DNA of 64,000 bases. Origin: an uncultured Candidatus Saccharibacteria bacterium. GTDB taxonomy: Bacteria; Patescibacteriota; Minisyncoccia; Phycocordibacterales; DATDWN01. Shown here one piece after another: positions 17,653 to 64,000 of the stretch (position 1 is its first letter; every line of letters begins with the position of its first letter). The position numbers and the translations under genes were made by a program. The stretch lies in NCBI GenBank assembly GCA_964468795.1, contig CAYXWL010000001.1, forward strand, positions 232,246 to 296,245, given 5' to 3'. The notes under the pieces are model-generated. The model saw only the letters and a program-made list of their open reading frames with translations, was not told the origin of the DNA and did not search any database.

Positions 17653-18414
17653 ATGAAATTAATTACCTTAAATGCGTGGGGTGGAAAAATATATGAACCA
17701 CTCATTTCTTTCCTTAAGGAACACTCAAAAGATGTGGATATTTTTTGCTTTCAAGATGTATTATTCGGGTCAAAACCAGAGTTTACTCCAATTCAAAAAG
17801 GAAGAGTAAACTTATTTTCAGAAATTGAAAATATTTTAAGTGATTTTAATTCATTTATCTTTAGAGATAAAAATGAGTCATTTATTCATGGCGAGATGTT
17901 GCCTCTCGAGGTGGGGTGCGGGCAAGCTATTTTTGTAAGAAAAAATTTAAAAGTTCTAGATAACGGCGCATTTCGTGCTTTAGACAGAGAAACAGACGAT
18001 GACATTGCTCCTGGAAGATGCCAGTGGATTAAAATTAAATTACATAACGAAGAAAACCTGGTTGTTATGAATTTACATGGAATGTGGCAAAAAGGTTCTC
18101 AAAAGAAAGACACTCCAGAAAGAATAGTACAATCACAAAAAGTTAAGGAGTTTTTCTCTCAACACAATTCCAAGCAAATAATATGTGGTGATTTTAATAT
18201 GGTAAAAGATGGGAATGCAATGAGTATGTTGGAAGAAGGAATGGTAAATTTAGTGAAAGAATACGGCATTCAATCAACCCGAAGCAGCCATTACCCAAAA
18301 GAAGAAAAATTTGCAGACTATATACTCGTATCAAAAGATATAAAAGTAAATGATTTTAAAGTTTTGCAGAATGAGGTATCAGACCATTTGCCTTTATTTG
18401 TGGATTTTGAATAA
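17653..18414 (+). CDS. endonuclease/exonuclease/phosphatase (EEP) family protein
   Basis: MKLITLNAWGG .. CFQD .. GDFN .. SDHLPL motif series. Confidence 0.7.
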   Translation: MKLITLNAWGGKIYEPLISFLKEHSKDVDIFCFQDVLFGSKPEFTPIQKGRVNLFSEIENILSDFNSFIFRDKNESFIHGEMLPLEVGCGQAIFVRKNLKVLDNGAFRALDRETDDDIAPGRCQWIKIKLHNEENLVVMNLHGMWQKGSQKKDTPERIVQSQKVKEFFSQHNSKQIICGDFNMVKDGNAMSMLEEGMVNLVKEYGIQSTRSSHYPKEEKFADYILVSKDIKVNDFKVLQNEVSDHLPLFVDFE

Positions 18415-18420
18415 AGAAAA

Positions 18421-18442
18421 GCACCACGATTTTTTGTGGTGC
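18421..18442 (-). terminator. hairpin terminator at the AT/GC composition boundary
   Basis: GCACCACgattttttGTGGTGC, followed by a T-run on the minus strand. Ends the minus-strand GC-rich operon. Confidence 0.55.
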
Positions 18443-18575
18443 TGGAAGTGGTGTGCAGTCCAGATCTTTAGCATTGCGAGCGTTGGCCACCTCCTTGGTT
18501 TTCAACTTAGCCGCTCGCGTAGCGATCTGGTTACGGCTTGTGCCGTCATCCGTTCCCACTTAGGGAACGACTCAA

Positions 18576-18695
18576 TTAGTCCTCTGGCCTCTGCACATGC
18601 CTGGACCGCGATATGTTGGGAACTCCATGCAACATGAGTGCGCACTCCGCCTTTGTTACAGCGCCCTCCGCTAGAGGGTAACGTGCCGTCTTCAT
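18576..18695 (-). CDS. candidate 39-aa ORF (last gene of the GC-rich operon)
   Basis: Own translation MKTARYPLAEGAVTKAECALMLHGVPNISRSRHVQRPED, placed just after IR copy a. Below the track cutoff. Confidence 0.25.
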   Translation of the reverse strand: MKTARYPLAEGAVTKAECALMLHGVPNISRSRHVQRPED

Positions 18696-18703
18696 GGTGG
18701 AGC

Positions 18704-18745
18704 TCCCATCAAAAGTTTCAAATTATTTTAAAATCTTTGATGGGA
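18704..18745 (-). repeat. IR family copy a: TCCCATCAAA - AT-rich spacer - TTTGATGGGA
   Basis: 10-bp perfect inverted arms read directly; gene orientation is minus. Confidence 0.7.
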
Positions 18746-18885
18746 GGGCGAACAAATTTCGTTGCTCACCCATTGCACTGCGGTCTCGCCCTGCCTTATC
18801 AGCAAACGAAGTGTCTAGCTTCGTTGCTCGCTTAAGTCATTTCTGACATCAGCGAATTCGCGCAGGATCCCCGCTCAAGTTTGTG

Positions 18886-19386
18886 CTAACTCAGTCGACC
18901 CAATAAGGTTTGCCCTGTCGATACCAATCTGGCGTATGACCACCACTGACTGTAATCAGTGAGGATTTCCATACGCCAATGGCTGTCGACTCTGCCGGGA
19001 ATGGGCGGACACAATTCGATGAACGGAGATTGCTGATTGCGCAACTCCTCGTCCCTCGAAACGCGCCTCGCACACACCGGCAAAGTGACACCACTCGCAT
19101 CTTTGACGAATGCGACATTGGCACTGAGCCTCGACGAAAGTTTCCCACTGCATACTCGACCGTCTTTCTTTGGCGCAAGTAAGTTGAGAAAACTGTCGAT
19201 CGAGATAGGGCGATACCTCGTCAGGATCCGCTGCGCGTCGACGTATGTCCCGAGGTCCCAGAGAAGCAAATTGCTCTTCTCTTCGTTCCGGCGCACTTCC
19301 ATATTGCTAAAGTGACGCTCGAAAGTCTCACAAACCTCGAGGACGTTGACACTCACAAGGCGATCCCGAACGATGTAGTTTTCCAT
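18886..19386 (-). CDS. hypothetical protein (166 aa)
   Basis: Start set at MENYIVRDRL, preceded by AAAGGAGGG. GC-rich module. Confidence 0.55.
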   Translation of the reverse strand: MENYIVRDRLVSVNVLEVCETFERHFSNMEVRRNEEKSNLLLWDLGTYVDAQRILTRYRPISIDSFLNLLAPKKDGRVCSGKLSSRLSANVAFVKDASGVTLPVCARRVSRDEELRNQQSPFIELCPPIPGRVDSHWRMEILTDYSQWWSYARLVSTGQTLLGRLS

Positions 19387-19420
19387 GAGCCCTCCTTTGG
19401 GCAAAATACAGACTATTTTT

Positions 19421-19534
19421 AAAGAACTTTGGAACAATTTTGTTCCTTCAGAATACTTAACCTAGGTTAAACCCTCTGAAGGAAGTCCGAGGATATATGA
19501 CTTCCTCGGACGATACCGGGCTGACGCGCCGATA
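19421..19534 (-). promoter_or_regulatory. conserved structured leader, copy B (the homolog is at 26174..26288 on the plus strand)
   Basis: ~75 nt nearly identical to copy A: ATCGGCGCGTCAGCCCGgTATCGTCCGAGGAAGTCATATATCCTCGGACTTCCTTCAGAG. Covarying hairpins and GTTCTTT follow. Confidence 0.5.
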
Positions 19535-19544
19535 GACGTTATTG

Positions 19545-20093
19545 CTAGACTTCTCCCGAGAGATCGTTCGGATCTTCGTGGCCGTCCCACTCGGTGTCGA
19601 CATCTTCTCGCTTCCACTTGAGCCGATGGAGGACGTACTCGATCCTGCCCCTGGATTGTTTGGACAGCTTCCACTTCAACCAGCCGAACTCCTTCTCGAG
19701 CTGAGCAAGATTCTCGATCTGCCAACGCTTCAGGCAAGAAACGAGTCTTGGACTGAAGATGGATTTCGTCGAGATCTCCTCCCGAGGCCGATCTTTCAGC
19801 GAGTCGACGATGGCGTTGAAAGCCATCTCGAACTTCTGTTGCTCTACGGGCGGAGGCGGGAGTGGCTTCGGCGGTTTGCCGGCGTTCTTTCGTGCGGTGC
19901 GAACCTTACGAACTGCCTTGCGGGCAATCTGCATGATTCGCTCCTTCGTGACGGCAAACTCCTGGCCGATGTCGTTGTAGCTCATCCCTTGCGCGAGTAA
20001 GGTCAGGATTCTCTCCTCGCGGGGAGTCGTCCTCATGCGCTCGACTGGTGTGATCTCCGAAATGACAATGCCGAACAAAGTTTTTTTCTGCAA
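19545..20093 (-). CDS. sigma70 region-4-like HTH protein with an extra C-terminal domain
   Basis: TTG start after GGAG. TPREERILTLLAQGMSYNDIGQEFAVTKERIMQIARKAVRKV resembles sigma region 4. FSPRLVSCLKRWQIENLAQL weakly resembles an RpoA-CTD helix-hairpin-helix. Confidence 0.55.
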   Translation of the reverse strand: MQKKTLFGIVISEITPVERMRTTPREERILTLLAQGMSYNDIGQEFAVTKERIMQIARKAVRKVRTARKNAGKPPKPLPPPPVEQQKFEMAFNAIVDSLKDRPREEISTKSIFSPRLVSCLKRWQIENLAQLEKEFGWLKWKLSKQSRGRIEYVLHRLKWKREDVDTEWDGHEDPNDLSGEV

Positions 20094-20128
20094 TGTTTTT
20101 CTCCAAAGAACAAAGGGAAATTATTTTC

Positions 20129-20165
20129 CCGTCAAAACTCTGAAATAAATTCAAAACTTTGACGG
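20129..20165 (-). repeat. IR family copy f (variant arms CCGTCAAA / TTTGACGG)
   Basis: Preceded on the minus strand by hairpin GCCGAACttcgGTTCGGC. Followed by GGGAAAataaTTTCCC, GTTCTTT, GGAG and the start of 19545..20093. Confidence 0.6.
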
Positions 20166-20421
20166 AAGCCGAACCGAAGTTCGGCAAGTGTGATGGTAAA
20201 CTCGGAGTAGTTGTAGCCACTCTTTGCTCTTTAGGTAACTTGCGCCCTTAGCGAATACCCTGATTCCATCGCCAGACAGAATCACGGGAGAGTGGTTAAA
20301 GCTACAACTTCTAACCAACTACTCGCTCAATATGTATCACGGGCCATCACGCTCCACGACACGTCGCAACATTTTTCCTGCTCAAAAAATTCTACGATGT
20401 ACCGTGGAACTTTACAAAGAA

Positions 20422-20474
20422 CTTCTGTTTCGTCGTTTCCGACTCATCAGGTGAGACATACATCTCACGACAGG
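20422..20474 (-). ncRNA. hammerhead ribozyme, type III (HHR1)
   Basis: Minus strand: cCUGUC|GUGAGA-UGUAUG-UCUCAC-CUGAUGA-GUCG-GAAA-CGAC-GAAAC-AG. Full catalytic core, GUC cleavage site. Confidence 0.8.
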
Positions 20475-20558
20475 TGCCTTGGGTGCTAATCAAGACAAAT
20501 GATTTTTGGCCCTACTGCCCCTTGCGGGTACTCGGACCTTCTGTTGCCAAGCCGGTCA

Positions 20559-20939
20559 TTACTCCGGCTCCGTCTCCTCAAGCTGCTCTTCAGCAAGCTC
20601 GAGTTTTCTGCAGGCCTCTTCGAAGGCAACCAAGGCAGGAATGTTTCCCTTGCCCAGCTCTGGCAGCACTACGATTGGGAAGATTTCATCTCCCGTCTCG
20701 AGGTACAACCGAGAACCTTCTCCGTCGTGATGGGCGGCCCGCGAGAACTGGCGATGGCAGGAACGGCACTCGAAATAATCCAAGTCGTTCACTTCCACCG
20801 TGCAAGCTCCACAGGACGGACACCCATAACAAAGGAGTCGGCGTTGCGATTCTTCGTAGGCGAGCATTGGACACGAAGACAAGTGCTCGGACACTGACTC
20901 GTGGCAGTGTCGGCACTTTACCGTCAGTCGCAGTCTCAT
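20559..20939 (-). CDS. Cys-rich zinc-ribbon-like protein (126 aa)
   Basis: ATG at 20939, 5 nt after AGGAGG. CRHC..C..CYGCPSCGAC..CRSC motifs. Confidence 0.55.
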   Translation of the reverse strand: MRLRLTVKCRHCHESVSEHLSSCPMLAYEESQRRLLCYGCPSCGACTVEVNDLDYFECRSCHRQFSRAAHHDGEGSRLYLETGDEIFPIVVLPELGKGNIPALVAFEEACRKLELAEEQLEETEPE

Positions 20940-21315
20940 ACTCACCTCCTATTAAAGAACTTGAGACAAACCATTTGCCTCGTCATAATAATCAAAATCT
21001 TGATTTCTCTGACGAGACCCCGACTGATATTTTAGTCGGGATGTTGTGGTGGTGACTGTAAGCGATTGCAGTCACTTACAACCTTGAGATGTTCGGCGAA
21101 TTCCGAGCACCTCTTAGTGAATGTTTGGCTCCACCCGTATCCGAAATAGATACGGGAATCTGGCGCAAGCGCTGGGTGAGAATCTGCAACTCTCACGCTC
21201 TAAGCACCATTCACTCCCTCATGTATCATGGGCCACCACAGCTCCACGACACCTTGCACAACATTTTTTAGAAAAATTCTGTGCGAGATGTCGTGGATAG
21301 ATCAAAAGAACAGTT

Positions 21316-21366
21316 TCTGTTTCGTCCTTTCGGACTCTTCAGGGAGAATACACATTCTCCGACAGA
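21316..21366 (-). ncRNA. hammerhead ribozyme, type III (HHR2)
   Basis: Minus strand: CUGUC|GGAGAA-UGUGUA-UUCUCC-CUGAAGA-GUCC-GAAA-GGAC-GAAAC-AGA. Only the variable N7 differs from the other copies. Begins 6 nt after the stop codon of 21373..21651. Confidence 0.8.
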
Positions 21367-21372
21367 GCCGGA

Positions 21373-21651
21373 CTAACGTGCCGGCAACGAATAATTTTTT
21401 CTTCTCCACCTCCAAGGTTCATTTGAACCGACTCGGAACACGTAGCGGCCACACCGTGAGGTGTACCAGCCACGCGACTCGTCGGCCTTCCGCATTTTTG
21501 TGCGGAAGAAGTTACGAAGGCGACTCACATCACGCGACGTGAGCGGGCGGCCCTTGAGGACCTTTGCCCAGCTGAAGTACCCGTCTTCACGAGTGATCTC
21601 CAGCAACCGACCACCGAACCGATACTGGCCTCTTGACCACTCGCTTCCCAT
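21373..21651 (-). CDS. hypothetical basic protein (92 aa)
   Basis: ATG preceded by CTAGGAGGTATC. R/W-rich. Confidence 0.45.
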   Translation of the reverse strand: MGSEWSRGQYRFGGRLLEITREDGYFSWAKVLKGRPLTSRDVSRLRNFFRTKMRKADESRGWYTSRCGRYVFRVGSNEPWRWRRKNYSLPAR

Positions 21652-22032
21652 GATACCTCCTAGTTTTGAAAGAATAGTGGGTGTTTGCAGGATCCTCTCT
21701 GACTTTAATAGTCCGTGGCTTATCCACAGCTATTTCCTAGTGGTAACTTACCCACAAGGTCGTCTTTGATTAATCACCGCTAACATTGCACACCCGCGCA
21801 ACGCCAAGATGCCGGCAAGCATCTGGTGGATCGGAGCAAAGTTGCCTGGCCTCAGTTCTGTACGATTGCAGCCACTTTGGACTGCAATCTACCTCTCAGG
21901 CTGCCATGCCTTCGAAACACAGAAGTGTACCTTTGGCTCTGCTCCTAACGAAGATCCATCGGACTCCGGAATTTACCAAACTATTTGTCGAGCAAATTCC
22001 GAAATCCGTGAACCATTTTATTTTAAAGAACT

Positions 22033-22083
22033 TCTGTTTCGTCCTTTCGGACTCATCAGGCGAGACACTCATCTCACGACAGA
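22033..22083 (-). ncRNA. hammerhead ribozyme, type III (HHR3)
   Basis: Minus strand: UCUGUC|GUGAGA-UGAGUG-UCUCGC-CUGAUGA-GUCC-GAAA-GGAC-GAAAC-AGA. 5-bp open stem III. Confidence 0.85.
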
Positions 22084-22133
22084 CCAGGATGACGCTCTGG
22101 TAGACGTTTAGGAGATTCTGTTGCCGAGCTCTC

Positions 22134-22352
22134 CTAGTGCTCCGAGGCTGAGTCAGTGAGGATCAGCGTGGTAACCTCGGCGTAAAACGCCTCGACCTCT
22201 GGTCCACCGAACAGGGGTTTGTAAGACCCGTCGGAGTTCCGAGGCCAGATGCCTATGATGGCATCGAGCGTCGCCTTCGAGAGGTTGAATCTCTCGAAAG
22301 TCTTCCGCGCGAGTTCCTCCGAGATCCCCGTGATCTGATAGACTCTTTTCAT
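22134..22352 (-). CDS. hypothetical protein (72 aa)
   Basis: Start MKRVYQITGISEELARK after GAGGAGAGTGAC. Confidence 0.45.
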   Translation of the reverse strand: MKRVYQITGISEELARKTFERFNLSKATLDAIIGIWPRNSDGSYKPLFGGPEVEAFYAEVTTLILTDSASEH

Positions 22353-22388
22353 GTCACTCTCCTCAAAGAACTCGGAACGAACCATTCG

Positions 22389-22460
22389 TCCCATCAAAGA
22401 AATCAAGCTTTATTATTTTCTTGAAAGTAAACTTTCAAGTTGTTAATTGCTTTGATGGGA
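22389..22460 (-). repeat. IR family copy b: TCCCATCAAAG - 50-nt AT-rich spacer - CTTTGATGGGA
   Basis: 11-bp perfect arms. The spacer contains hairpin CTTGAAAgtttacTTTCAAG. Confidence 0.7.
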
Positions 22461-22566
22461 GGGCAAACGATGTTTTGTCGCTCACCCATGTTTACCCATG
22501 CTTTTACGCGGAAGGATTTTTCCACAACTTCGGTGCCTTGGCCGAAGGTTGACGCACCCAGTCGGA

Positions 22567-22743
22567 TTACTTCTTCCGATAGCCAGGCTTCCCGCCACAG
22601 GGAACGGAAACTGCTTTCACAGATTCCCGTTTTGCGGTTTTCAGCCTGCCGTCGTAGAAGTAACCAGCCCGAGCGAGGATCTTGTTGGCTTGCGCCTCCA
22701 AAGTCCTCTGATGGTTTGTGGCCACCATTGTGATTGTTGTCAT
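22567..22743 (-). CDS. hypothetical protein (58 aa)
   Basis: MTTITMVATNHQRTLEAQ.. preceded by GAGGAGGATC. First ORF after a ~370-nt leader. Confidence 0.4.
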   Translation of the reverse strand: MTTITMVATNHQRTLEAQANKILARAGYFYDGRLKTAKRESVKAVSVPCGGKPGYRKK

Positions 22744-23116
22744 GATCCTCCTCAGGATTGACTGGTTGTTAATGTAAAGAACATCGCGGGGGATGAGTTC
22801 GGGCTGGGGCCTAGTACACCGTGCAGCAACACGGGACTTCAGGCGAAAAGTGACCCCATATTGGTTTGCCTTACGCGAGATTCTTGCTCGCGCCTGGCTC
22901 CGCACACTTCCCTTGCTGAAGGGGAAGACTCCCTATGCGGTATTGAATGCCACCCTACACACCCCCACCTCAAAAGACTTGTATCTTCTGAAGCGGAGGA
23001 ATGTGTCCTCCATTTGTAAAGAAATGCACTTTGAAGTTAATTTTGATTGCGGGTCCGTGATATTTATCTGGACGGTTGCCATTCGCTAATAAAACTTAAC
23101 TTCAAGGTACACTGGT

Positions 23117-23145
23117 AGTATATACTAAACGTATATTTTTGTCAA
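23117..23145 (-). promoter_or_regulatory. sigma70-type promoter for the minus-strand GC-rich operon
   Basis: Minus strand TTGACA - 17 nt - TATACT. Confidence 0.55.
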
Positions 23146-23280
23146 GCAGTTTTGACATTTTCTTTTTATAAATCTAAAAATAGCTATAAATATAGCCATT
23201 ATATAGAATATAGATTTAATTTAACCTGACTAAACTAGTATTAAATTGACATACTAAATAAATAATTTTGTTATTTATAT

Positions 23281-23309
23281 TTGACAAATAAAATGAATGG
23301 GTATATACT
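23281..23309 (+). promoter_or_regulatory. sigma70-type promoter for the candidate ncRNA
   Basis: TTGACA (23281-86) - 17 nt - TATACT (23304-09). Confidence 0.6.
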
Positions 23310-23314: not shown

Positions 23315-23658
23315 GCAGACGAGTACCCAGGGTGTTCTTGGGGAAAGGAGGGTTCCATGCACGACTAGTGCGGGCTGGGGAACCGGGGGTTGTTAACCCC
23401 CGGTGTGGCCTCCAGTTTGGCTAGTCATAGATTGTGGAGGAAGCAAAAGTGGACGACTAGCACATAGGTGGTTCCAGTTCCATGCGTCCGACCACCAGAT
23501 AGTCAGAGGACGCGAGACAGATCATCTTCGTTCAGTTCAAGGTGGAAAATCCACCAGACAAAGAGAGAAGTGTGATTCCGTCAATCGTTCCCGGCGATTA
23601 GTCTTCGGGAACAACATGCCGTGGCGACAACTTACCGTCGCCACGGCATTTCTTATTT
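23315..23658 (+). ncRNA. candidate novel structured RNA (~340 nt) with its own promoter and intrinsic terminator
   Basis: GC-rich island between a consensus promoter and terminator ATGCCGTGGCGACaacttaccGTCGCCACGGCAT+TTTCTTATTT. Many helices, e.g. CCGGGGGUUguuAACCCCCGG and GGUGGAaaaUCCACC. Confidence 0.5.
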
Positions 23659-24393
23659 ATGATCAAAGATATATTTAATTAGGCTTTTGAGAGTGTCTGC
23701 AAACTCTTTGCTTTTTATTAAAATACCAGATGGTCTCTTTCCCAGAATAGATATTCTCACTTGGTCACCATAAACAGTAATATCGCTACTTAAAGGATAC
23801 TTCTCTGAATTTATTTTTAGCCTCTCTCCCATTTCATCTGATGGTTTATCTATATTTTTTGAAGTGTATATAGATCTAGATTTAATTCCTCTTGAAATCC
23901 TACGATCTTTTAGTCTACTTGTTTCTTTATCATCGAAAATATCCTTAACTAGATCTAAAGGATAAACTATATAAACAGGTTCATCAGGAAGTATTTTTAT
24001 AAAAGTATCATCATTTGAGCTAAGCACCCCTTCTTTACCATCAAAAAACTGAACCATTGGTTTTTCCCCTTGTTCTCTTTGGATACCTTTTAATTGTGGG
24101 ACGATAATATCTAGACCTTTTTTATTCTCTTCTAATAAGTGGATCTGTCTTTCTACGAACAAGCCAAGTTTTTCTGGAGGTTCAGCAATATAAAAAGTCT
24201 TTTTTCCAATATTTGATTCACTAACTAAACCCTTCTTCTGTAAAGATTCCAGGATCACGTATGCAGTAGGACGCTTTATCGTTGCTTTTTCGGCAATTTC
24301 AGTTACAAGAGCTTTATCAAAGGAAAGAAGAGCTAAATAAACTGCTGCTTCCTTATCACTAAGCCCAATATCTTTAAGGTATTTTTCAAACAT
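23653..24393 (-). CDS. TrmB-family transcriptional regulator
   Basis: N-terminal LGLSDKEAAVYLALLSFDKALVTEIAEKATIKRPTAYVILESLQKKGLV winged HTH. AT-rich like the host. Confidence 0.75.
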   Translation of the reverse strand: MFEKYLKDIGLSDKEAAVYLALLSFDKALVTEIAEKATIKRPTAYVILESLQKKGLVSESNIGKKTFYIAEPPEKLGLFVERQIHLLEENKKGLDIIVPQLKGIQREQGEKPMVQFFDGKEGVLSSNDDTFIKILPDEPVYIVYPLDLVKDIFDDKETSRLKDRRISRGIKSRSIYTSKNIDKPSDEMGERLKINSEKYPLSSDITVYGDQVRISILGKRPSGILIKSKEFADTLKSLIKYIFDHK

Positions 24394-24481
24394 ATGATTG
24401 TGATGATTTTGATTATTATAACATAGATTTTTTATTTTTTAAAAACAAAATCCGCCCTCCAACGGATTTCGTTGTGGGCGG

Positions 24482-24979
24482 TTAGGATTTACGATACTTC
24501 TCCTCCATTTCTCGGATAGCTTCCTCCAGAGTTCCGAGTCCCATTGCATGTCTTCTCTCATCAACATGCTCAGGATCCTCGATTTCTTTCGGAATAAACT
24601 TTCCGTCGACTTCAGTAAATTGTGTACCGAAGATTTGTGGACGATCCGTGTTCACTCTCACACGATCTGCGAGGTATGCCAGATCTTCTTTGATGATTTC
24701 CTCGAGAGGGCAATCCATCATAGAGTGTAGGCACAACTGTTGGAACGTGGGGTCATGGTCAGCGTGTTGAACGATGAGCCATGCAGAATGTGATGCTTCT
24801 CTGCCCACCATAGAAATCGTAGGCCATCTGTGATGTAACCAGATCCTCATCATCTTCACAGTGTTCTGAAAATCAACTGTCTCATCCCAGAAATCAGGAT
24901 CAAGAAGATTCTTGGAGCGCATTTCCTGGTCAACACGCCCCATCTCAAGTAGCTGTTCTGCCAACTCAGGGAAGAGCAT
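24482..24979 (-). CDS. hypothetical protein (165 aa)
   Basis: ATG preceded by AAAAAGGAGGTCAC. GC-rich. Ends at terminator CCGCCC..GGGCGG+T-run. Confidence 0.55.
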   Translation of the reverse strand: MLFPELAEQLLEMGRVDQEMRSKNLLDPDFWDETVDFQNTVKMMRIWLHHRWPTISMVGREASHSAWLIVQHADHDPTFQQLCLHSMMDCPLEEIIKEDLAYLADRVRVNTDRPQIFGTQFTEVDGKFIPKEIEDPEHVDERRHAMGLGTLEEAIREMEEKYRKS

Positions 24980-24994
24980 GTGACCTCCTTTTTC

Positions 24995-25222
24995 TCACAC
25001 GGGTTGAGTCCATTCTTTCAGAACTCGCACAGTCTTGACCCAGCTTTTCTGATAGACAAGCGGATCATCACTTGGAGCGTCCACCAGAGCCTTGGCAATC
25101 ACTTCTGCTTTGGCGTCGTCTTCAGCTTCAAATGGGATGAACTTCCAACCTCCGCTGGTTAGCCATCTACTATTCGAAGCTGTGTAACGCATTTCTGCAT
25201 ACCAGACTTCGTATTTCGACAT
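24995..25222 (-). CDS. hypothetical protein (75 aa)
   Basis: Start MSKYEVWYAEMRY after AAACGGAGGTTTT. The track ORF was trimmed. Confidence 0.45.
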   Translation of the reverse strand: MSKYEVWYAEMRYTASNSRWLTSGGWKFIPFEAEDDAKAEVIAKALVDAPSDDPLVYQKSWVKTVRVLKEWTQPV

Positions 25223-25238: not shown

Positions 25239-25284
25239 AATATACCATTTTGTGCTTGACAAGTCAAGTAAAGTATGCTAGGAT
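25239..25284. promoter_or_regulatory. back-to-back divergent promoters with adjacent -35 boxes that together form a palindrome
   Basis: Plus: TTGACA(25256-61)-17-TAGGAT. Minus: TTGACT(25267-62)-17-TATATT. The -35 boxes lie in CTTGACaaGTCAAG. Confidence 0.5.
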
Positions 25285-25353
25285 AGAGGTAGTAATTCCT
25301 GTATGTATGTACAGGTCGCCCGAGAAGGGTAGGACAGAAAAAGGATGTGTCGT

Positions 25354-25662
25354 ATGACGCAGAATGCATATGATTTGAAGAAGATCGTGAACGGTCCGAG
25401 CAAGATGGACCTCATGCTGGCGATGTTCGACAGCAGCTTCCCGAATCACCGTTCAGTTGTCTTCAACTTTGAGAATGAGGGAGCGAGCAACTTCAAAGCT
25501 AGTGCTCCCTGTCACATCTCGATGGTTGAGAAGGAAGACGGTTCTGGCGAAAGCTTTAACTTCGAAGGAACTCTCTCCTACGACAACTTCCGGACAGGTA
25601 AGAGGGTGCGTGGTTGCTATAACACCATGCGCCGGACTGGCTTCTTCCACTTCGTGCAGTAG
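25354..25662 (+). CDS. hypothetical protein (102 aa)
   Basis: MTQNAYDLKKIVNG.. after AAAAAGGA. Confidence 0.45.
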   Translation: MTQNAYDLKKIVNGPSKMDLMLAMFDSSFPNHRSVVFNFENEGASNFKASAPCHISMVEKEDGSGESFNFEGTLSYDNFRTGKRVRGCYNTMRRTGFFHFVQ

Positions 25663-25690
25663 TTCTTCTGGGCGAGTTGTTAACTCGCCC

Positions 25691-25730
25691 TCCCATCAAA
25701 GTAATTAAATTTTTGATTTCTTTGATGGGA
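25691..25730 (+). repeat. IR family copy c
   Basis: GGGCGAGTTgttAACTCGCCC hairpin, then TCCCATCAAAG-18 nt-CTTTGATGGGA. Confidence 0.7.
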
Positions 25731-25782
25731 CAATTTGGTCCCGATTTGTTCATTTCAATTTTCAGTGCCCAAAGGAGGGCCC

Positions 25783-26154
25783 ATGATCAACGAACGTGGT
25801 GAGTTTATTCGCGAGACGGCAGCTCCTTCTACCAAGGAAGTCACCACGAAGAATTACATGGTCAACGTGGTCACTTCATCGCTCAAGGATATTCTCAGTG
25901 GACACAACCTGATCAGCGACATGAACCAGGTTATCCTTCTCCAGTTCGGACCTTGCTCGGAAGAGGAAGGTGACGCTCTGGCGGATCGGATCAACGCGTG
26001 GGTTCGTGGGGGTGAAGGTCGTGGTCCTGCTGAGGCATTCCGGATTCTGGGACTGCACCAGAAGACGGGAGATGTGTGGGCGTCTTGCGACCCGATCCCG
26101 ACGGCTGGCATCTCGGAACTTCTCCAAAAGTTCCAGGTGAAAACCACTGTTTGA
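25783..26154 (+). CDS. hypothetical protein (123 aa)
   Basis: MINERGEFIRE.. after AAAGGAGGGCCC. Confidence 0.5.
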   Translation: MINERGEFIRETAAPSTKEVTTKNYMVNVVTSSLKDILSGHNLISDMNQVILLQFGPCSEEEGDALADRINAWVRGGEGRGPAEAFRILGLHQKTGDVWASCDPIPTAGISELLQKFQVKTTV

Positions 26155-26173
26155 TCAACATAAAGATCCGTCC

Positions 26174-26288
26174 ATCGGCGCGTCAGCCCGATATCGTCCG
26201 AGGAAGTCATATTATCCTCGGACTTCCTTCAGAGAGTTCAACTTTGTTTGAAAATTCTGAAGGAACGAATAGTTCGTTCTGGTTCTTT
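26174..26288 (+). promoter_or_regulatory. conserved structured leader, copy A
   Basis: ATCGGCGCGTCAGCCCGATATCGTCCGAGGAAGTCATATTATCCTCGGACTTCCTTCAGAG ... TTCTGAAGGAACGAAtagTTCGTTCtgGTTCTTT, then GGGGAGG and ATG at 26302. Confidence 0.5.
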
Positions 26289-26301
26289 GGGGAGGTACAC
26301 C

Positions 26302-26520
26302 ATGTTCGTCAGCAATACCACGATTTTTCACTGCCCGATGTTCGGGTGCGGTCACGAAAACGAACGTTCGAACCGCACGAAGCCGGAAGACATCGTTTGC
26401 GAAGGATGTCACGCACCTTGGTGGCCGATGGAACTCGGTTTCATTGGAAATGATCCGAAAGAAAACATCGAGTTCGCACGGACTCATGATCGGAAAGGAA
26501 ATCTTCGTGAGCTGGCGTAA
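26302..26520 (+). CDS. zinc-ribbon-like small protein (72 aa)
   Basis: MFVSNTTIFHCPMFGCGHENE..CEGCHAPWW. Confidence 0.45.
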   Translation: MFVSNTTIFHCPMFGCGHENERSNRTKPEDIVCEGCHAPWWPMELGFIGNDPKENIEFARTHDRKGNLRELA

Positions 26521-26550
26521 TTCTTCTGGGCGAACGTAATTTGTTCGCCC

Positions 26551-34063: not shown

Positions 34064-34194
34064 ACAGCCAAGGTTATCATAAAAGCTATATTTTTGAAAT
34101 GCAAAGAAGTTGCATCAAATAAGCTAATTAAATATTTCTTACACAAGAAAAGGGGCAACGGACATACGCCGCGCCCCCTATGTGTGTTCGCAAG

Positions 34195-34359
34195 CTAGTG
34201 GATATTCAGCTTGCGTTCTCGCTTCAGCAACTCATCGAAGGTTGCGGAAGCTTCGGTACCGGTCTTCTGGACAGGTACAGCAGAACCCCTTTTCGGGGAT
34301 TTCCTAAGGCAAATTTTCTGCCAGTCGGGAAAGTCATCCGGCCAAACGACAACTCTCAT
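34195..34359 (-). CDS. candidate 54-aa ORF in a small GC-rich cassette (coding status doubtful)
   Basis: Cassette has TTGACC-16-TATAAT and a GGAGG. The GGAGG-proximal ATG gives only 13 aa; the 54-aa frame starts 21 nt later. Confidence 0.2.
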   Translation of the reverse strand: MRVVVWPDDFPDWQKICLRKSPKRGSAVPVQKTGTEASATFDELLKRERKLNIH

Positions 34360-55649: not shown

Positions 55650-55717
55650 TGTTATTAAAAAAGCTTTTTCAAGCTCAAACTACACTATCAAAACTCGTGT
55701 ATAAAGTCAAACAAAAT

Positions 55718-55745
55718 GCCCGGGTCTCCTTTCGGAGACCCGGGC
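55718..55745 (-). terminator. strong intrinsic terminator inside the spc operon
   Basis: Minus strand GCCCGGGTCTCCgaaaGGAGACCCGGGC + ATTTTGTTT. Confidence 0.7.
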
Positions 55746-55755
55746 ACAGACAGAA

Positions 55756-56412
55756 CTACAAGCCCACACGAAGTACGAGTCTTGCTTCTTCGAGCTTGTG
55801 CCGAGCAGGACCATTCCCAAACTTCTCGACCTGCTCCTCGAGGTTCATGCCTGTGTTAAATGACATGACGAATGGGACATTCAGACGGGAATCCCGTTCG
55901 ACAATGTACCGGAAGGCATTGTCGAAGGTCTCGCGAGAGATCTGATTCGCACTAATCTTGGTGATCTTAAAAGCAACTTCCGCCAAGATATTACGAAGCT
56001 CATAGTCTGTTCCTGTAAATGCAGGCACCAGATCCTTGCGCTTGGAAAAAGTGAAGGTCTGATCTACCCACACTTGCGGTCGCGTTGTTTTGTATTTTGC
56101 GACCATTCCGGGTTCAGACAAATTATCCTGAATATACCGGTAAGCATCAAGAGCTTCGACAAATGCTGAGTAGAGGGTAATTGCTGTAACCCCCTTCACC
56201 TCATTCATAACGAAGAGTGGATTATGCTCGCAAGCATATCGGAACATGCGCTTCTCGAAAAGATTTTCACGCCATCTTCGAGGAAGACGACGCAAATACC
56301 TGATCCCTTTCGGAACCGCCCACATCACGGAAAGGAACAGCCCCGTGCTCCAGAAGAGCAGACCGAAGTAAATAACAAGCCAGCCAGCCCTGTACAAGTT
56401 GTAAAGGTCCAT
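55756..56412 (-). CDS. hypothetical membrane-anchored protein (218 aa) in a GC-richer cassette
   Basis: N-terminal TM pair (WLVIYFGLLFWSTGLFLSVMWAV). ATG after GATGGAGGCAGT. No motif recognised. Confidence 0.6.
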   Translation of the reverse strand: MDLYNLYRAGWLVIYFGLLFWSTGLFLSVMWAVPKGIRYLRRLPRRWRENLFEKRMFRYACEHNPLFVMNEVKGVTAITLYSAFVEALDAYRYIQDNLSEPGMVAKYKTTRPQVWVDQTFTFSKRKDLVPAFTGTDYELRNILAEVAFKITKISANQISRETFDNAFRYIVERDSRLNVPFVMSFNTGMNLEEQVEKFGNGPARHKLEEARLVLRVGL

Positions 56413-56490
56413 ACTGCCTCCATCTGTACCAATCCTAGTCCTACGCTCCTCAAAATGAGGAGTGTGGCTGGTAGTACAGATTTGTAATAT

Positions 56491-56520
56491 ATTATATCAC
56501 TATTTGTACTGTAGTGTCAA
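56491..56520 (-). promoter_or_regulatory. consensus sigma70 promoter of the cassette
   Basis: Minus strand TTGACA-18 nt-TATAAT, followed by a ~80-nt hairpin-containing leader. Confidence 0.55.
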
Positions 56521-56700
56521 TATATCCCTGATAAAGAAAAAACTCCATTTATGGAGTTTTTTCTTTACACGAGTTTGTCGTTCTGAGGATTTTTGCTAGA
56601 GTTCGAGGTGGGAGTGCGGATTGCGACCAAGCTGTACAAGTAGTATTGCGCGGGAGCAAACGCAAGCGACAAACAAAGAAATCGAGCAAAAAGACCAGAA

Positions 56701-57234
56701 CTACTTTTTGAATGGGAATCCTAGGTGCCGTAGATAGGCCTCAGTCTCTTTCTTATCCTTTATATTTGTAACAATTGTTACCGCAAGTCCGAACACATCT
56801 TTTAGTTCTTCATCTCCTGTTTCTGGGAAGATAGTGTGCTCTCTTATTCCTAAAGTGTAGTTTCCCATCTGATCAATGCCATTTGTAGAAATTCCTCTAA
56901 AGTCTTTTGTTCGTGGAAGAGCAATGTTTACAAGTCTGTCTAGAAAATCATACATTCTCTGACCTCGCAATGTTACCTGCATTCCAATAGTGTCTCCCTG
57001 TCGTACCTTGAAAGCTGCGATAGAAATCTTTGCTCCTCTTCGTGATGGCTTCTGGCCTGTAATTTTTGCAATTCTGTCTGCAACAAGTTCGATTTTCTTC
57101 TTATCAAATCTAGAACCAGTTCCAACAGAAACAACCACCTTTTGGATCTTTGGTGCCTGCATTACGTTCTTGTATCCAAAATCAGACTTTAGAACATCGA
57201 AACTCTTTTTTGTTTTTGCTTTTATTGATTCCAT
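56701..57234 (-). CDS. rplE: 50S ribosomal protein L5
   Basis: 177 aa. ..PKIQKVVVSVGTG.. and ..FRGIS..GNYTLGI.. Confidence 0.9.
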   Translation of the reverse strand: MESIKAKTKKSFDVLKSDFGYKNVMQAPKIQKVVVSVGTGSRFDKKKIELVADRIAKITGQKPSRRGAKISIAAFKVRQGDTIGMQVTLRGQRMYDFLDRLVNIALPRTKDFRGISTNGIDQMGNYTLGIREHTIFPETGDEELKDVFGLAVTIVTNIKDKKETEAYLRHLGFPFKK

Positions 57235-60210: not shown

Positions 60211-60400
60211 TTTTGTCTATTTTAATTCCCTCGCCATTTGGCAAGAAGAAAACCACTCAGTAAATTTAAATCGCGTGGTACTGACTTACTTAATAATTCA
60301 AAAAGAATGTAAATACCTCAGTGGCGTCTATACTATACAAAATGCTTAAATATGTCAACAACAAAGCTAAAGGGCGGAATACTCCGCCCTTTCCACCTCT

Positions 60401-60646
60401 CTAGGTGGGATCATAAATCCTTACAAGTGCAGTACACCGCGTACAATGCACCTCGCCTAGCCTAGTTACTGGATCTACATTTACTATCTTGTGCTCTTGA
60501 GGAGTAGACGAGCATACGGGACAGTTCTTTCCATCAATCGGAATGGCCTGCGTACCGAACTCTGTTCTCCATATGGCAACAAACCCAGCTTCACCAACTG
60601 CTCTTGCAAGAGCTTCGAGCATCCTGCCTCTCTTGGTTTCTTCCAT
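60401..60646 (-). CDS. small zinc-ribbon-like protein (81 aa) in a GC-richer cassette between rplB and rpsS
   Basis: CPVC..(22 aa)..CTRC. ATG after AATCGGAGGAATC. Flanked by terminators (60749-60797 and 60369-60392) and promoter-like TTGACT-17-TTAAAT. Confidence 0.55.
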   Translation of the reverse strand: MEETKRGRMLEALARAVGEAGFVAIWRTEFGTQAIPIDGKNCPVCSSTPQEHKIVNVDPVTRLGEVHCTRCTALVRIYDPT

Positions 60647-60832
60647 GATTCCTCCGATTATTAATTTAATTCTATTATGGAAATAAAGTCAAAGGCCATC
60701 TTGCATTCGTAAAACTTCCCAATTTGGGTGAGATACGACGGGAGAAAACAAAAAATGCACCGAGGTGTACATATAGTACATTGAGGTGCATTTTTGGTTT
60801 TTGGACCGAGTAGGTCGCCAAATTTGGAAGTT

Positions 60833-62642: not shown

Positions 62643-62656
62643 AGTTATGTATTTAA

Positions 62657-63268
62657 TTAGCCTCGCACTTCTACGACTGTTCCTCGTCGTCCTGGAACTG
62701 CACCTCGGATAAAGAGTTCTCCTGTCTCCTTGTTTATTGAAACAATAGTGAGATTCTTTGTGGTGATCTTCACCCCTCCCATTCGGCCGGCCATTCTCTT
62801 TCCTTTAGCAACTCGGCCTCCGTCTCGTCCAGCACCTCCAATAGATCCTGGCTCTCGCTCTGAGTGCTTCTGACCGTGCGATCGTGGTCCTCCTGCGAAA
62901 CCATGTCGCTTAACCACACCCTGGAATCCCTTTCCCTTTGAGATGCTTGAAACTGTTACCTTGTCTCCAGCAGCAAAAGCAGATAGGTCAACCTTGTCTC
63001 CAAGATTAAGGGTAGAGTCACCTTCAACTCGCATCTCCTTTAGATGAGCGAACTTTCCCTCTTTCATGTGGCCAGAAAGCGCCTTGTTGATGTTCTTAGC
63101 AGAACGAGTACCGAAACCAAACTGCACAGCAGAATAGCCATCTTTTGCAGATGTCTTCACCTGAGTCACTGTCATTGGACCAGCCTTAACGACAGTTACA
63201 GGATGCACAACTCCCTCAGCATCGAAGATCTGAGTCATGTTTACTTTTGTTCCGAGGATGAATTTCAT
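62657..63268 (-). CDS. rplC: 50S ribosomal protein L3
   Basis: 203 aa. GTKVNMTQIF..KGKGFQGVVKRHGF. Confidence 0.9.
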   Translation of the reverse strand: MKFILGTKVNMTQIFDAEGVVHPVTVVKAGPMTVTQVKTSAKDGYSAVQFGFGTRSAKNINKALSGHMKEGKFAHLKEMRVEGDSTLNLGDKVDLSAFAAGDKVTVSSISKGKGFQGVVKRHGFAGGPRSHGQKHSEREPGSIGGAGRDGGRVAKGKRMAGRMGGVKITTKNLTIVSINKETGELFIRGAVPGRRGTVVEVRG

Positions 63269-63454
63269 TGTATTTCTGGTGACGGTTTGCGGACAGTAAT
63301 GCGAGGAGAATCCTCACAACATTGCTCTTTACTAGCCACCCATTTAAAAAAGCCTTTTCGGCGTTTGCCTACTGTAGCAGATATCGTTTTTTATTTCAAG
63401 TGCTATTTGACTCAATCTGTAAAAATCTATATTGTTCTGCCAGAGGTATCGAAC

Positions 63455-63730
63455 ATGCTTGGTAATCTGTTCTTTTGGAGCTACCTTCTTTTGGGAGCTC
63501 TCATGGCTCTCGTATGCTTCTTTATCCTAAGAGATGACTTTGCCCTCCAAGAGGAGCTGGAAACGATCCGGGCTTCCAGCCTCATTGCCGGATTCAGCTT
63601 CGTTCTGGCAGGCCTTGCAATTGCATTCTGGCTCCGAAATCTAGCCTCCTTTACAGTTTGGGGGTCCGCTACCGCATGCTACTGGATGCATATCTTGCTT
63701 GTACTCAGAGCACGGGCATCGAAAAAATAA
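63455..63730 (+). CDS. small 3-TM membrane protein (91 aa) in a cassette between rplC and rpsJ, antisense to the operon
   Basis: Promoter TTGACT(63407)-17-TATTGT, AGAGG RBS, two terminators after the stop (TCGTCCGGaacgcCCGGACGA; AAACCACCgagaatGGTGGTTTTTT). Only the last third of track ORF 63044..63730 is used. Confidence 0.5.
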   Translation: MLGNLFFWSYLLLGALMALVCFFILRDDFALQEELETIRASSLIAGFSFVLAGLAIAFWLRNLASFTVWGSATACYWMHILLVLRARASKK

Positions 63731-63803
63731 ACGTTACTCAATCGTCCGGAACGCCCGGACGATTTCTCGTACAATAAAACCACCGAGAATGGTGGTTTTT
63801 TGA

Positions 63804-63848
63804 TTAGATTATCTTTACGTCGATGTTGACTCCTGACGGAAGCGATGC
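63804..63848 (-). pseudogene. rpsJ: 3'-terminal remnant of rpsJ (S10): last 14 codons only
   Basis: Own translation ASLPSGVNIDVKII* matches the conserved S10 C-terminus (..LDLPSGVDIEIKL in B. subtilis, from memory). An in-frame TAA lies immediately upstream, and no S10-like frame continues. Confidence 0.6.
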
Positions 63849-63892
63849 TTATACACACGTTCTCTATCTAAGGCAGTGTCACATAACGTCAA

Positions 63893-63921
63893 TTGACATT
63901 TATAAGTAAATAGAGTATAAT
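63893..63921 (+). promoter_or_regulatory. consensus promoter of a further cassette at the window edge
   Basis: TTGACA-17 nt-TATAAT. The AAATAGaGTATAAT segment resembles the 56491-56520 promoter (AAATAGtGaTATAAT). Confidence 0.5.
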
Positions 63922-63965
63922 TATAAAAGATAAAATTTCGATCTTTCTCAAGAAAGGAGAGAAGG

Positions 63966-64000
63966 ATGGCTCAATCTGCCCATGATTTTGACAGTCAATT
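63966..64000 (+). CDS. 5' end of an unknown ORF (runs off the window)
   Basis: AAAGGAGAGAAGG-ATG GCT CAA TCT GCC CAT GAT (MAQSAHDFDSQ..). Confidence 0.35.
   Translation, partial: MAQSAHDFDSQ

Follow-up and report, generated by a model that had tools for sequence, protein, structure and literature searches.

Cassette arrays with structured RNA junctions and GC-rich small-gene units in a Parcubacteria-type chromosome

A 64-kb stretch of contig CAYXWL010000001.1, here called the window, contains segments of raised G+C content in which small open reading frames (ORFs) and structured RNAs are set among the AT-richer genes of a bacterial chromosome. These segments are several different kinds of thing and not one: two cassette arrays, the target gene and template repeat (TR) of a diversity-generating retroelement (DGR), and small units between conserved genes that resemble phage morons. 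In the reading favoured here, to which a probability of about 0.6 may be given, they form a flexible pool of accessory genes, insulated from each other at the RNA level and exchanged by recombination. The original prediction, which saw autonomous GC-rich promoter-ORF-terminator cassettes scattered through an AT-rich genome, is partly confirmed: the GC contrast and the boundaries hold, while the segment at 63.85-64.0 kb and the autonomy of the large blocks do not.

Cassette arrays and their junction RNAs

Consider the array at 18.4-23.1 kb (array 1), which was delineated by a scan for promoters and terminators, by direct reading and by the positions of a short motif, GTTCTTT. It consists of eight cassettes delimited by this motif, six of them coding (for proteins of 58, 72, 92, 126, 182 and 166 amino acids, aa) and two non-coding. 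Two types of junction element occur, hammerhead ribozymes and a module of three hairpins called A, B and C. GTTCTTT comes after each hammerhead and each module, in most cases with a ribosome-binding site and a small ORF behind it. In 7.3 kb of arrays the motif occurs 11 times in the sense and twice in the antisense direction, and elsewhere 24 times in 113 kb, which makes it about seven-fold enriched over the background. The positions of these elements and of their counterparts in array 2, in the block at 24.4-27.8 kb, are given in Table 1.

All three hammerheads lie on the sense strand of array 1, as direct repeats 717 and 892 nt apart, and match the Rfam family with E values of 1e-7 to 1e-5. 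When the three copies are aligned with nine from relatives and phages, the core CUGA(U/A)GAG...CGAAAC and a GUC or GUU triplet are kept in all 12, and the common fold is paired in 168 of 168 cells, with compensatory changes in 9 of 14 pairs and a score matched by none of 500 shuffles. Stems I and II are closed by loops and stem III is open, as in type III hammerheads. Similar hammerheads occur in four phage contigs, in single copies only. Between the stop codon and the hammerhead of two cassettes lies the motif GGCAACAGAA (20539-20548 and 22116-22125, minus strand), found also in those cassettes of relatives that encode a protein starting DNRTVRL; it is similar to GAAACAGAA, the 3' strand of stem III in the hammerhead, with which it could compete for pairing.

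The three-hairpin modules are confined to the arrays. The GC-rich hairpin A directly abuts the long hairpin B, with consensus UCCCAUCARAG...CUYUGAUGGGA and an AU-rich distal part, and the small hairpin C follows, overlapping the 3' arm of B. Helix B is 95.9% paired, and 8 of its 15 pairs show compensatory changes. Since one of its positions holds a G·U pair in 15 of 18 copies, the helix folds in the sense strand. Hairpin B was also considered as an attachment (att) site of a serine recombinase, which is ruled out by its co-varying arms and its sense-strand G·U pairs. When genome contigs were scanned with a palindrome pattern, the matches were chance hairpins in unrelated genomes. Of the RNA classes GOLLD, ROOL, OLE, HEARO, twister, pistol and hatchet no match was found at E<=10 in 18.3-23.4 kb, and none at E<=0.05 in five relatives; an rRNA operon, as an explanation of this 4.7-kb GC-rich and ORF-poor block, is excluded by the lack of any rRNA match in Rfam. 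A literature search on hammerheads in integrons or in bacteria of the Candidate Phyla Radiation (CPR) found nothing relevant.

At least ten related loci, in which the TrmB-like regulator is 71-79% identical to that of the window, share a platform with it. In all of them the regulator gene is accompanied by the array promoter and a leader, a structured non-coding RNA, a conserved 3' terminal element, and hammerheads and modules set in GC-rich DNA. The cassettes of the ten loci have nothing in common with those of the window, apart from the 58-aa leader ORF, which alone among the array ORFs has homologues in the arrays of relatives (L139, L140 and L141; 68-76% identity by tblastn). The presence or absence of cassettes in relatives had been put forward as a check: array cassettes are wholly different, while the inserts among ribosomal protein genes, described below, are present, diverged or absent.

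Comparison of individual loci shows how cassettes are placed. In locus L131 the 182-aa and 166-aa genes stand in reversed order relative to the window. The cassette family with protein start DNRTVRL... occurs in three arrays and three contexts; in two of them homology begins right after GTTCTTT, and in the third directly after the stop codon of the preceding ORF. Locus L137 has one cassette more than L135, flanked by an identical 22-nt stretch made up of hairpin C and GTTCTTT. On such alignments cassettes move as units.

The conserved RNAs of the platform are themselves structured. The non-coding RNA at 23316-23649 has a folding z of -8.1, is conserved in relatives with covariation in its 5' domain, and matches no Rfam family. 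It contains two tandem repeats of an AGGAGG-like site, a start codon and NNC-GAC-stop (mini-ORFs M-x-D), whose GACUAG is base-paired within a covarying helix; these mini-ORFs could be a decoy for ribosomes or a protein, or a tiny leader peptide. The terminal element of array 1 shows compensatory changes in 11 of 37 predicted pairs; it is a multi-helix RNA in which a AAGGAGGUGGCCAACGCUCGCAAUGC stretch is nearly invariant, and in L143 it is found within the array, with GTTCTTT and a further cassette after it. A palindrome, TAGCTATAAATATAGCCA, at 23181-23198 between two divergent promoters, is conserved in relatives and is likely the operator of the adjacent TrmB-like regulator. Array 1 further has an untranslated leader of ~330 nt with several hairpins (22775-23110, minus strand), which is conserved in four genomes (the type of L135, L137 and L139), and L140-L143 carry another, unrelated leader type.

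From these parts a mechanism may be proposed. The array would be transcribed from its near-consensus promoter as a single RNA, which the hammerheads would cut into gene-length pieces. Each downstream mRNA would then start at a 5'-OH with the body of the folded ribozyme, followed by a uniform leader of GUUCUUU and ribosome-binding site, and the A-B-C modules would have an equivalent insulating, stabilising or processing role. Because the junction elements would cut or insulate, each cassette could be expressed independently of its neighbours. The shared junction sequences would at the same time supply homology for gain, loss and reordering of cassettes by recombination, while the serine recombinase described below would move the whole island. 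The high GC, which is mostly synonymous and has its maximum at codon position 3, would reflect selection that favours transcripts with stable structure, a common pool of cassettes richer in GC, or both.

Base composition, coding capacity and transcript structure

The GC content of the window is 0.407; that of the ten segments first pointed out is 0.493 when they are pooled, against 0.387 elsewhere. When each segment is compared with same-length windows taken outside the segments (z values in Table 1), nine of the ten are GC-rich as claimed and the one at 63.85-64.0 kb is not, with a GC of 0.325. The contrast had been estimated by eye as ~50-60% against ~30-45%, which holds at its low end only. 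The proposed coincidence of composition switches with promoters and terminators is borne out by promoter-like sites and hairpins located at segment edges, and the expectation that segments hold small ORFs or structured RNA by the finding of both kinds. Instead of four zinc-ribbon-like ORFs there are at least five with CxxC...CxxC, and cysteine is 3.2-fold enriched in cassette ORFs. Regarding the notion of autonomous cassettes, it describes the five scattered units but not the two large blocks, which are multi-cassette operons with a single promoter each.

The cassette ORFs are real genes, since dN/dS lies between 0.14 and 0.33 in six cassette pairs, in accordance with purifying selection, and since most have strong ribosome-binding sites. 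When compared with Pfam, PHROG and PADLOC they belong to no family except for a sigma-70 region 4 helix-turn-helix and DUF6624, and the PADLOC search for defence systems gave nothing beyond a weak helix-turn-helix match. The 182-aa protein has only 2 homologues, near-identical to it, among 5.8 billion sequences; the DUF6624 cassette gene has its closest homologues in Patescibacteria.

G+C at the third codon position (GC3) is 0.47-0.75 in cassette ORFs and 0.352±0.054 in host genes (n=65, maximum 0.459). The excess is largest at this position (0.57 vs 0.35) and is seen at positions 1 and 2 too. Codon usage, which had been named as a check, is sharply unlike that of the host: the ATC share among Ile codons is 0.67 in cassettes and 0.23 in the host, and Arg is encoded by CGN instead of AGA. 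The cassette proteins are enriched in Cys, Trp and Arg.

Composition is accompanied by structure. Relative to dinucleotide shuffles, the two units bounded by hammerheads fold with z of -8.4 and -11.7. For coding parts only, the mean z is -2.6 in 21 cassette ORFs and -0.03 in 23 host genes (Mann-Whitney p=9.5e-6). In a scan with 150-nt windows the arrays stand out, with more structure in their sense than in their antisense strand.

It is possible to read the high GC as the imprint of a donor. The segments would then be a recent horizontal import from a GC-richer source (a virus, a plasmid or the symbiont's host), not yet ameliorated, with hairpins and ribozymes as incidental phage baggage. Foreign-looking GC3 and codons, mostly orphan proteins, insulated units, variable presence among relatives, and the position of the large blocks in an island with a serine recombinase and tRNA-Ser all agree with foreign acquisition, as the original prediction had it, and hammerhead clusters are typical of prophages (PMC3088659). 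But the genes of the island backbone (the TrmB gene, the recombinase, the reverse transcriptase, Avd and three genes at 27.8-29.3 kb) have a GC of only 32-37%, and because they are AT-rich like the host, the rule that foreign DNA keeps the GC of its donor fails to explain the pattern. Nor does it explain that the GC excess goes with RNA structure beyond what composition predicts, or that at least ten relatives keep the array ends and the non-coding parts in synteny. Of the more specific viral or host-organism source no sign was found: there are no PHROG matches and no relatives in viral contigs, none of which has the terminal element or the TrmB platform gene, and the nearest DUF6624 homologues lie in Patescibacteria. 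On balance, recent import is an unlikely account.

The unit between the ribosomal protein genes L5 and S14 bears on the same question. Its GC3 lies ~0.2 above that of the host both in the window and in L146, a relative whose host genes are GC-richer. The excess of sense-strand structure together with this homologous insert points to a maintained property more than to a fresh import, and the GC is accordingly read as a feature tied to transcript structure and not only as a stamp of import. Adenine mutagenesis of the DGR type, as another source of GC, is ruled out by AT skew, the sense strand showing no adenine depletion.

The surrounding island and the units among essential genes

The arrays lie in a region that extends from ~18.4 kb (possibly 10.5 kb) to the tRNA-Ser at 33.8 kb, with recombinase and DGR at the tRNA end. 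A recombinase with Resolvase, Recombinase and zinc-ribbon domains at the edge, beside a tRNA, and cargo that differs between relatives are present here, as in integrative islands; the large serine recombinase is likely its integrase and the tRNA-Ser(GCU) its probable attachment end. In L147, a close relative in which the DUF6624 protein is 93% identical, the recombinase adjoins the same tRNA-Ser, and the cargo is a different one, consisting of a three-gene array with the same modules and of restriction-modification genes. In L141 the order is array, serine recombinase, tRNA; its recombinase is only 33% identical to that of the window. The flanks of L147 map to 8.4-10.5 kb of the window, and the left edge of the island lies somewhere within 10.5-18.4 kb. 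From the presence of a gene for a ParB-N/DNA-methyltransferase fusion both in the window (11590-12873, plus strand) and in the L147 island (3551-4873) follows that the AT-rich 10.6-18.4 kb may also be island. A second copy of the 3' end of tRNA-Ser, as an island boundary, was looked for and not found. The first 17 nt of tRNA-Ser with 3 nt upstream (33867-33886) are perfectly repeated 177 nt further on, at 34044-34063, followed by sequence in which ARAGORN calls no tRNA; this partial duplication may be the remnant of an integration or excision event.

The TR of the DGR and its variable repeat (VR) form a 118-nt repeat pair, in which 16 of 16 core differences fall at TR adenines. Only the target gene and the TR are GC-rich within the DGR. 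A (GA)10 run (33185-33204) divides its reverse transcriptase into two frames that overlap (32629-33231 and 33171-33719); an error of assembly, slippage that gives phase variation, or a pseudogene could account for this.

The scattered units lie among conserved genes. Beside tRNA-Ser, the coding sequence of the 57-aa ORF folds with z = -6.4. Between the stop codon of ftsH and tRNA-Ile, two ORFs with 23 nt in common are served by a single promoter and a single terminator, a layout that resembles a toxin-antitoxin pair; two longer ORFs that overlap this stretch (39997-40470, plus strand, and 40153-40476, minus strand) match no family. The tRNA-Ile itself (39805-39879, minus strand) has anticodon UAU, and ATA makes up 32% of Ile codons in the host and 6% in cassette ORFs. 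The three remaining units lie in the ribosomal protein cluster, which takes up ~17% of the window; with three of five units in it, a rough binomial estimate gives p ~0.04. A preference for sites next to essential genes, as originally predicted, is more than five units in a streamlined genome can show.

This cluster is, in the present lineage, already split by internal terminators and promoters, and the inserted units occupy those gaps; L5, for instance, is followed by a separate terminator (56536-56562). The 218-aa protein encoded between L5 and S14 has 35 distant cluster representatives among 1.84 billion. Among relatives chosen as L5 homologues, L144 (L5 83% identical) is without the L5/S14 and L2/S19 units, while L146 (81%) has a 30%-identical homologue at L5/S14, a strongly diverged 140-aa version at L2/S19 and a 94-aa ORF at S10/L3. 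From the absence in L144 and the diverged versions in L146 follows that the units are fast-evolving residents of hot spots and not necessarily recent arrivals. L5 itself (56701-57234) has 177 aa in the window and 197-202 aa in most of the relatives listed, a basic C-terminal tail being absent, and the sequence past its stop codon (56563-56700) resembles the S14-S8 spacer of L145, which suggests a local rearrangement at L5 upon arrival of the 218-aa unit.

The host is an ultra-small bacterium from groundwater, with a chromosome of Parcubacteria/Minisyncoccia type. The window encodes type IV pilus genes, RecG, FtsH, SecY, glucose-6-phosphate dehydrogenase, transfer-messenger RNA (tmRNA) and the S10/spc ribosomal protein cluster. 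The nearest L5 homologues are annotated as Minisyncoccia, Parcubacteria or Zambryskibacteria, and the relatives come from 0.1-µm groundwater fractions; L139, L141 and L143 were obtained from the Hainich wells.

Table 1. Segments, sites, genes and RNA elements in the 64-kb window
Feature	Positions	Strand	Details
Segment	18410-23100		GC 0.508; z 8.6, clear outlier
Segment	23300-23660		GC 0.521; z 3.3, clear outlier
Segment	24400-27800		GC 0.477; z 5.4, clear outlier
Segment	30800-32300		GC 0.509; z 4.8, clear outlier
Segment	34150-34400		GC 0.514; z 2.8, clear outlier
Segment	39930-40430		GC 0.505; z 3.2, clear outlier
Segment	55700-56500		GC 0.478; z 2.8, moderate
Segment	60370-60660		GC 0.491; z 2.4, moderate
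Segment	63300-63800		GC 0.457; z 1.9, weak
Segment	63850-64000		GC 0.325; not GC-rich; 12/12 promoter and first 34 nt of a gene
Promoter-like sites	23145-23117(-), 23281-23309(+), 31829-31800(-), 34419-34392(-), 56520-56491(-), 63893-63921(+)		11-12/12 matches
Promoter-like sites	25256-25284(+), 25267-25239(-), 40427-40400(-), 60692-60663(-), 63407-63435(+)		9-10/12 matches
Terminator-like hairpins	18443-18420(-), 23616-23649(+), 27777-27806(+), 34172-34155(-), 55747-55716(-), 60392-60369(-)
ORFs with CxxC...CxxC	20559-20939, 26302-26520, 27255-27500, 39966-40175, 60401-60646
Cassette array 1	18420-23110	-	one transcription unit; GC 0.508
Array 1 promoter	23117-23145	-	TTGACA-17-TATACT, 11/12 matches; kept in all relatives
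Leader ORF, 58 aa	22567-22743	-	dN/dS 0.26
Junction module A-B-C + GTTCTTT	22365-22487	-	further copies 20954-21040, 20105-20185, 19421-19510, 18703-18771 (A-B only)
Cassette ORF, 72 aa	22134-22352	-	GC3 0.75
Hammerhead type III, HHR3	22031-22085	-	Rfam RF00008, 41.5 bits, E=1e-6; predicted cleavage 22078/22077
Cassette ORF, 92 aa	21373-21651	-	AGGAGG ribosome-binding site; stop codon 5 nt before HHR2
Hammerhead type III, HHR2	21314-21368	-	Rfam, 44.4 bits, E=1.5e-7; predicted cleavage 21361/21360
Cassette ORF, 126 aa	20559-20939	-	four CxxC motifs, zinc-ribbon-like
Hammerhead type III, HHR1	20422-20476	-	Rfam, 42.3 bits, E=6e-7; predicted cleavage 20469/20468
Cassette ORF, 182 aa	19545-20093	-	sigma-70 region 4 type helix-turn-helix, Pfam PF04545, 31 bits; dN/dS 0.14
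Cassette ORF, 166 aa	18886-19386	-
3' terminal element, array 1	18440-18612	-	structured RNA; conserved in L131, L135, L137, L142, L143
Array 1 terminator	18420-18443	-	terminator scan
Structured non-coding RNA, ~330 nt	23316-23649	+	GC 0.545; promoter 23281-23309, terminator 23616-23649; divergent from array 1
TrmB-like winged-helix regulator	23653-24393	-	Pfam PF01978, 58.5 bits; AT-rich, GC 0.323
Two-gene unit, divergent from array 2	24482-25222	-	75-aa ORF 24995-25222, DUF6624 24482-24979; promoter 25267-25239, terminator 24449-24481
Cassette array 2	25290-27815	+	promoter 25256-25284, terminator 27777-27806
Array 2 ORFs (six)	25345-25662, 25783-26154, 26302-26520, 26658-27119, 27255-27500, 27524-27778	+
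Array 2 junction modules (four)	25662-25754, 26173-26288, 26520-26601, 27150-27241	+	in gene orientation
Large serine recombinase	29426-30757	+	Pfam Resolvase, Recombinase, Zn_ribbon_recom; closest curated NCBIfam models CcrB, XisF; AT-rich
DGR target gene, 311 aa	30849-31784	-	GC 0.554, GC3 0.70; own promoter 31829-31800; VR 30855-30972
DGR TR	32114-32231	+
DGR Avd	32278-32628	-	NCBIfam DivGenRetAVD NF033474, 83.4 bits (cutoff 80); AT-rich, 0.337
DGR reverse transcriptase	32629-33719	+	reverse-transcriptase matches; AT-rich, 0.337
tRNA-Ser(GCU)	33793-33883	-
Single-ORF unit beside tRNA-Ser	34155-34419	-	promoter 34419-34392, 57-aa ORF 34195-34368, terminator 34172-34155; GC 0.546
Two-ORF unit, ftsH stop to tRNA-Ile	39938-40427	-	promoter 40427-40400, ORFs 40153-40380 (75 aa) and 39966-40175 (69 aa, Cys-rich), terminator 39938-39965
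Unit between L5 and S14	55716-56520	-	promoter 56520-56491 (12/12), 218-aa membrane-anchored ORF 55756-56412, terminator 55747-55716
Unit between L2 and S19	60369-60692	-	promoter 60692-60663, 81-aa Cys-rich ORF 60401-60646, terminator 60392-60369
Unit upstream of L3, opposite strand	63407-63802	+	promoter 63407-63435, 91-aa membrane ORF 63455-63730, terminators 63743-63761 and 63777-63802

Alternative readings and known systems

Several observations weigh against an RNA-insulated, recombining gene pool. The hammerheads score 41-44 bits, below the Rfam gathering threshold of 48.5, the shortfall coming from a stem III of 4 bp and a short loop II, and the covariation of hairpin C is too weak to claim. 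Breakpoints are not uniform: they fall in the loop of hairpin A when L135 and L137 are compared, after a stop codon in L142 and at the base after GTTCTTT elsewhere, and no dedicated recombinase for cassette exchange was identified. The scattered ORFs at 55756, 60401 and 63455 fold with z between -1.3 and +0.3, and because several of the scattered units thus have little or no excess of structure, one explanation may not cover all segments. For the GC3 offset that is kept across genomes there is a single pair of homologues, one in the window and one in L146. That the ribozymes cleave, that RNA is processed at the A-B-C modules and that the ORFs are translated are predictions from sequence, and the evidence spans one 64-kb window, so that the "genome-wide" pattern of the original prediction is beyond its reach.

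A site-specific system of the integron type, in which the hairpin modules are attC-like, GTTCTTT is the crossover core and the recombinase is encoded nearby or elsewhere, would give a conserved platform with a single promoter and co-oriented, mostly promoterless orphan cassettes with one structured site each. It would also fit the cassette boundaries at GTTCTTT, the permuted cassette order, the identical 22-nt stretch around the extra cassette of L137 and the occurrence of a serine recombinase near arrays in three loci. However, no integron-type tyrosine recombinase is found among the window proteins scanned, the junction is made of three separate hairpins and not of one R''-L''/L'-R' hairpin, and there is no inverse core. 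The arms of B co-vary freely, with G·U pairs in the sense strand, and hence they are not sequence-specific protein sites but fold in the coding strand; hammerheads stand in for modules; and the recombinases of window and L141 share only 33% identity. Such a system is improbable.

There is likewise only a slim chance that the locus is an RNA-centred system with no described counterpart, an "RNA integron" or the equivalent of a retrozyme. Its platform of TrmB, ~330-nt RNA and terminal RNA would capture and express fast-turnover, hyper-structured and GC-rich orphan genes, hammerheads and A-B-C modules would be interchangeable ends, and movement would depend on RNA, either by copy-back of the cleaved structured transcripts into DNA or by platform RNAs that guide recombination at GTTCTTT.

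In a retrozyme-like mode of mobility proper, the RNAs of 717 and 892 nt bounded by hammerheads would be released, perhaps circularised, then reverse-transcribed and re-inserted. Tandem type III hammerheads on the same strand, extremely structured units and a reverse transcriptase encoded ~10 kb away are in its favour, but the cassettes are bounded by GTTCTTT and not by the ribozyme cleavage site, most junctions are without a hammerhead, and the units are branched instead of rod-like, with ORFs that purifying selection maintains. The reverse transcriptase belongs to the DGR, which has a TR/VR pair of its own; it is frame-shifted and is missing from the relatives fetched, and circular products were undetected in comparable bacterial clusters (Perreault et al., PMC3088659). 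This mode is very doubtful.

Finally, the GC pattern is not an assembly artefact, and the view that the GC-rich pieces come from another organism by chimeric assembly or binning, or are non-coding RNA with spurious ORFs, is largely refuted, in spite of many chance ORFs on both strands and of parts that truly are non-coding RNA (23316-23649, 18440-18612 and two ORF-less cassettes), by the recurrence of the AT/GC junctions in independent ENA, Logan and NCBI assemblies, with diverged versions in ten related metagenomic loci, by AT-rich promoters and host-type genes interleaved in single contigs, and by the dN/dS values and strong ribosome-binding sites of the cassette ORFs.

As a rule, DNA that is acquired or accessory has more A+T than the core. 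In the present case it has more G+C, and the link to folding beyond composition suggests that selection acts on the structure of transcripts in this streamlined symbiont. The purpose of bacterial hammerhead clusters has been an open question since 2011, for which the locus gives a clean comparative case: ribozymes and a second junction element are found in equivalent positions, and a standard leader always follows the ribozymes, so that the idea of a 5'-UTR (untranslated region) insulator or mRNA-processing site becomes testable. At least three candidate RNA families (junction module, terminal element and divergent non-coding RNA) are absent from Rfam. The junction module, terminal RNA and platform RNA, the link between GC and structure, and the orphan units inside ribosomal operons appear to be undescribed. 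Those units show at which places a minimal genome leaves room for novelty. Patescibacteria commonly have genomic islands (PMC12455944), and units in the ribosomal cluster may be the reason that translation genes of this group are flagged by island predictors (PMC12455944).

How does the locus compare with known systems? As in retrozymes and viroid-like RNAs, there are direct repeats of type III hammerheads 700-900 nt apart with highly structured RNA between them, but these are coding units under selection, not rod-like, without long terminal repeats (LTR), primer-binding site (PBS) or polypurine tract (PPT), and with boundaries off the cleavage sites. The DGRs of CPR bacteria are closely paralleled at 30.8-32.3 kb, with a textbook target and TR and with Avd and reverse transcriptase alongside; the GC-rich structured character of target gene and TR only, and the reverse transcriptase frameshifted in (GA)10, set it apart. 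Chromosomal integrons and clusters of attC sites without integrase share the one-promoter platform, the co-oriented and mostly orphan cassettes with a structured element each, and the variable content. But IntI was not found among the scanned window proteins, the neighbouring recombinase being a large serine recombinase, and attC is a single bottom-strand hairpin with R''-L''/L'-R' boxes and a GTTRRRY core, whereas here three hairpins or a hammerhead form in the sense strand, GTTCTTT is a direct repeat without an R''/R' core pair, and crossover points vary.

The "mobile regulatory cassettes" of T4-type phages (PeSL) and the boundary sequences of lambdoid phages are stem-loop repeats that flank orphan genes in hyperplastic regions and are regarded as drivers of shuffling, one repeat recombining with another. 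Short repeated stem-loop regulatory sequences around small orphan genes are common to them and to the arrays; PeSL repeats act at the DNA level with a promoter per gene, unlike the RNA-structured repeats here, with one promoter per array. Phage morons, described by Hendrix and colleagues, are independent promoter-ORF-terminator units of deviant composition between conserved genes, and the units at 34.2, 40.0-40.4, 55.7-56.5, 60.4-60.7 and 63.4-63.8 kb are much like them: each has one or two small ORFs between a promoter and a terminator of its own, a deviant GC and a variable presence among relatives. They differ in that they lie in a cellular chromosome, flanked by ftsH, tRNA-Ile and S10/spc ribosomal protein genes, and not in a phage or prophage, in that they are GC-richer and not merely different, and in that at least two are old residents diverged in place (L146).

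For this pattern, of which the original prediction knew no described counterpart, morons are one analogue and clustered hammerheads another: in prophage operons the latter flank variable genes and cleave in vitro (Perreault et al. 2011, PMC3088659). Those clusters likewise have several same-strand hammerheads within a few kb that bracket single small non-conserved genes, a MarR/winged-helix regulator and an integrase-type recombinase in the region, and a proposed role in cutting a long transcript to gene-length mRNAs (PMC3088659). In contrast to them, the present arrays lie in a Parcubacteria chromosome without phage structural genes or PHROG matches, their ribozymes alternate with a second, non-ribozyme module, every cassette starts with GTTCTTT, the array ends are conserved structured RNA with a partner non-coding RNA, and the cassettes are hyper-structured and ~12-17 GC points above the host. 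With these differences, the locus is best read as akin to clustered-hammerhead operons and phage morons.

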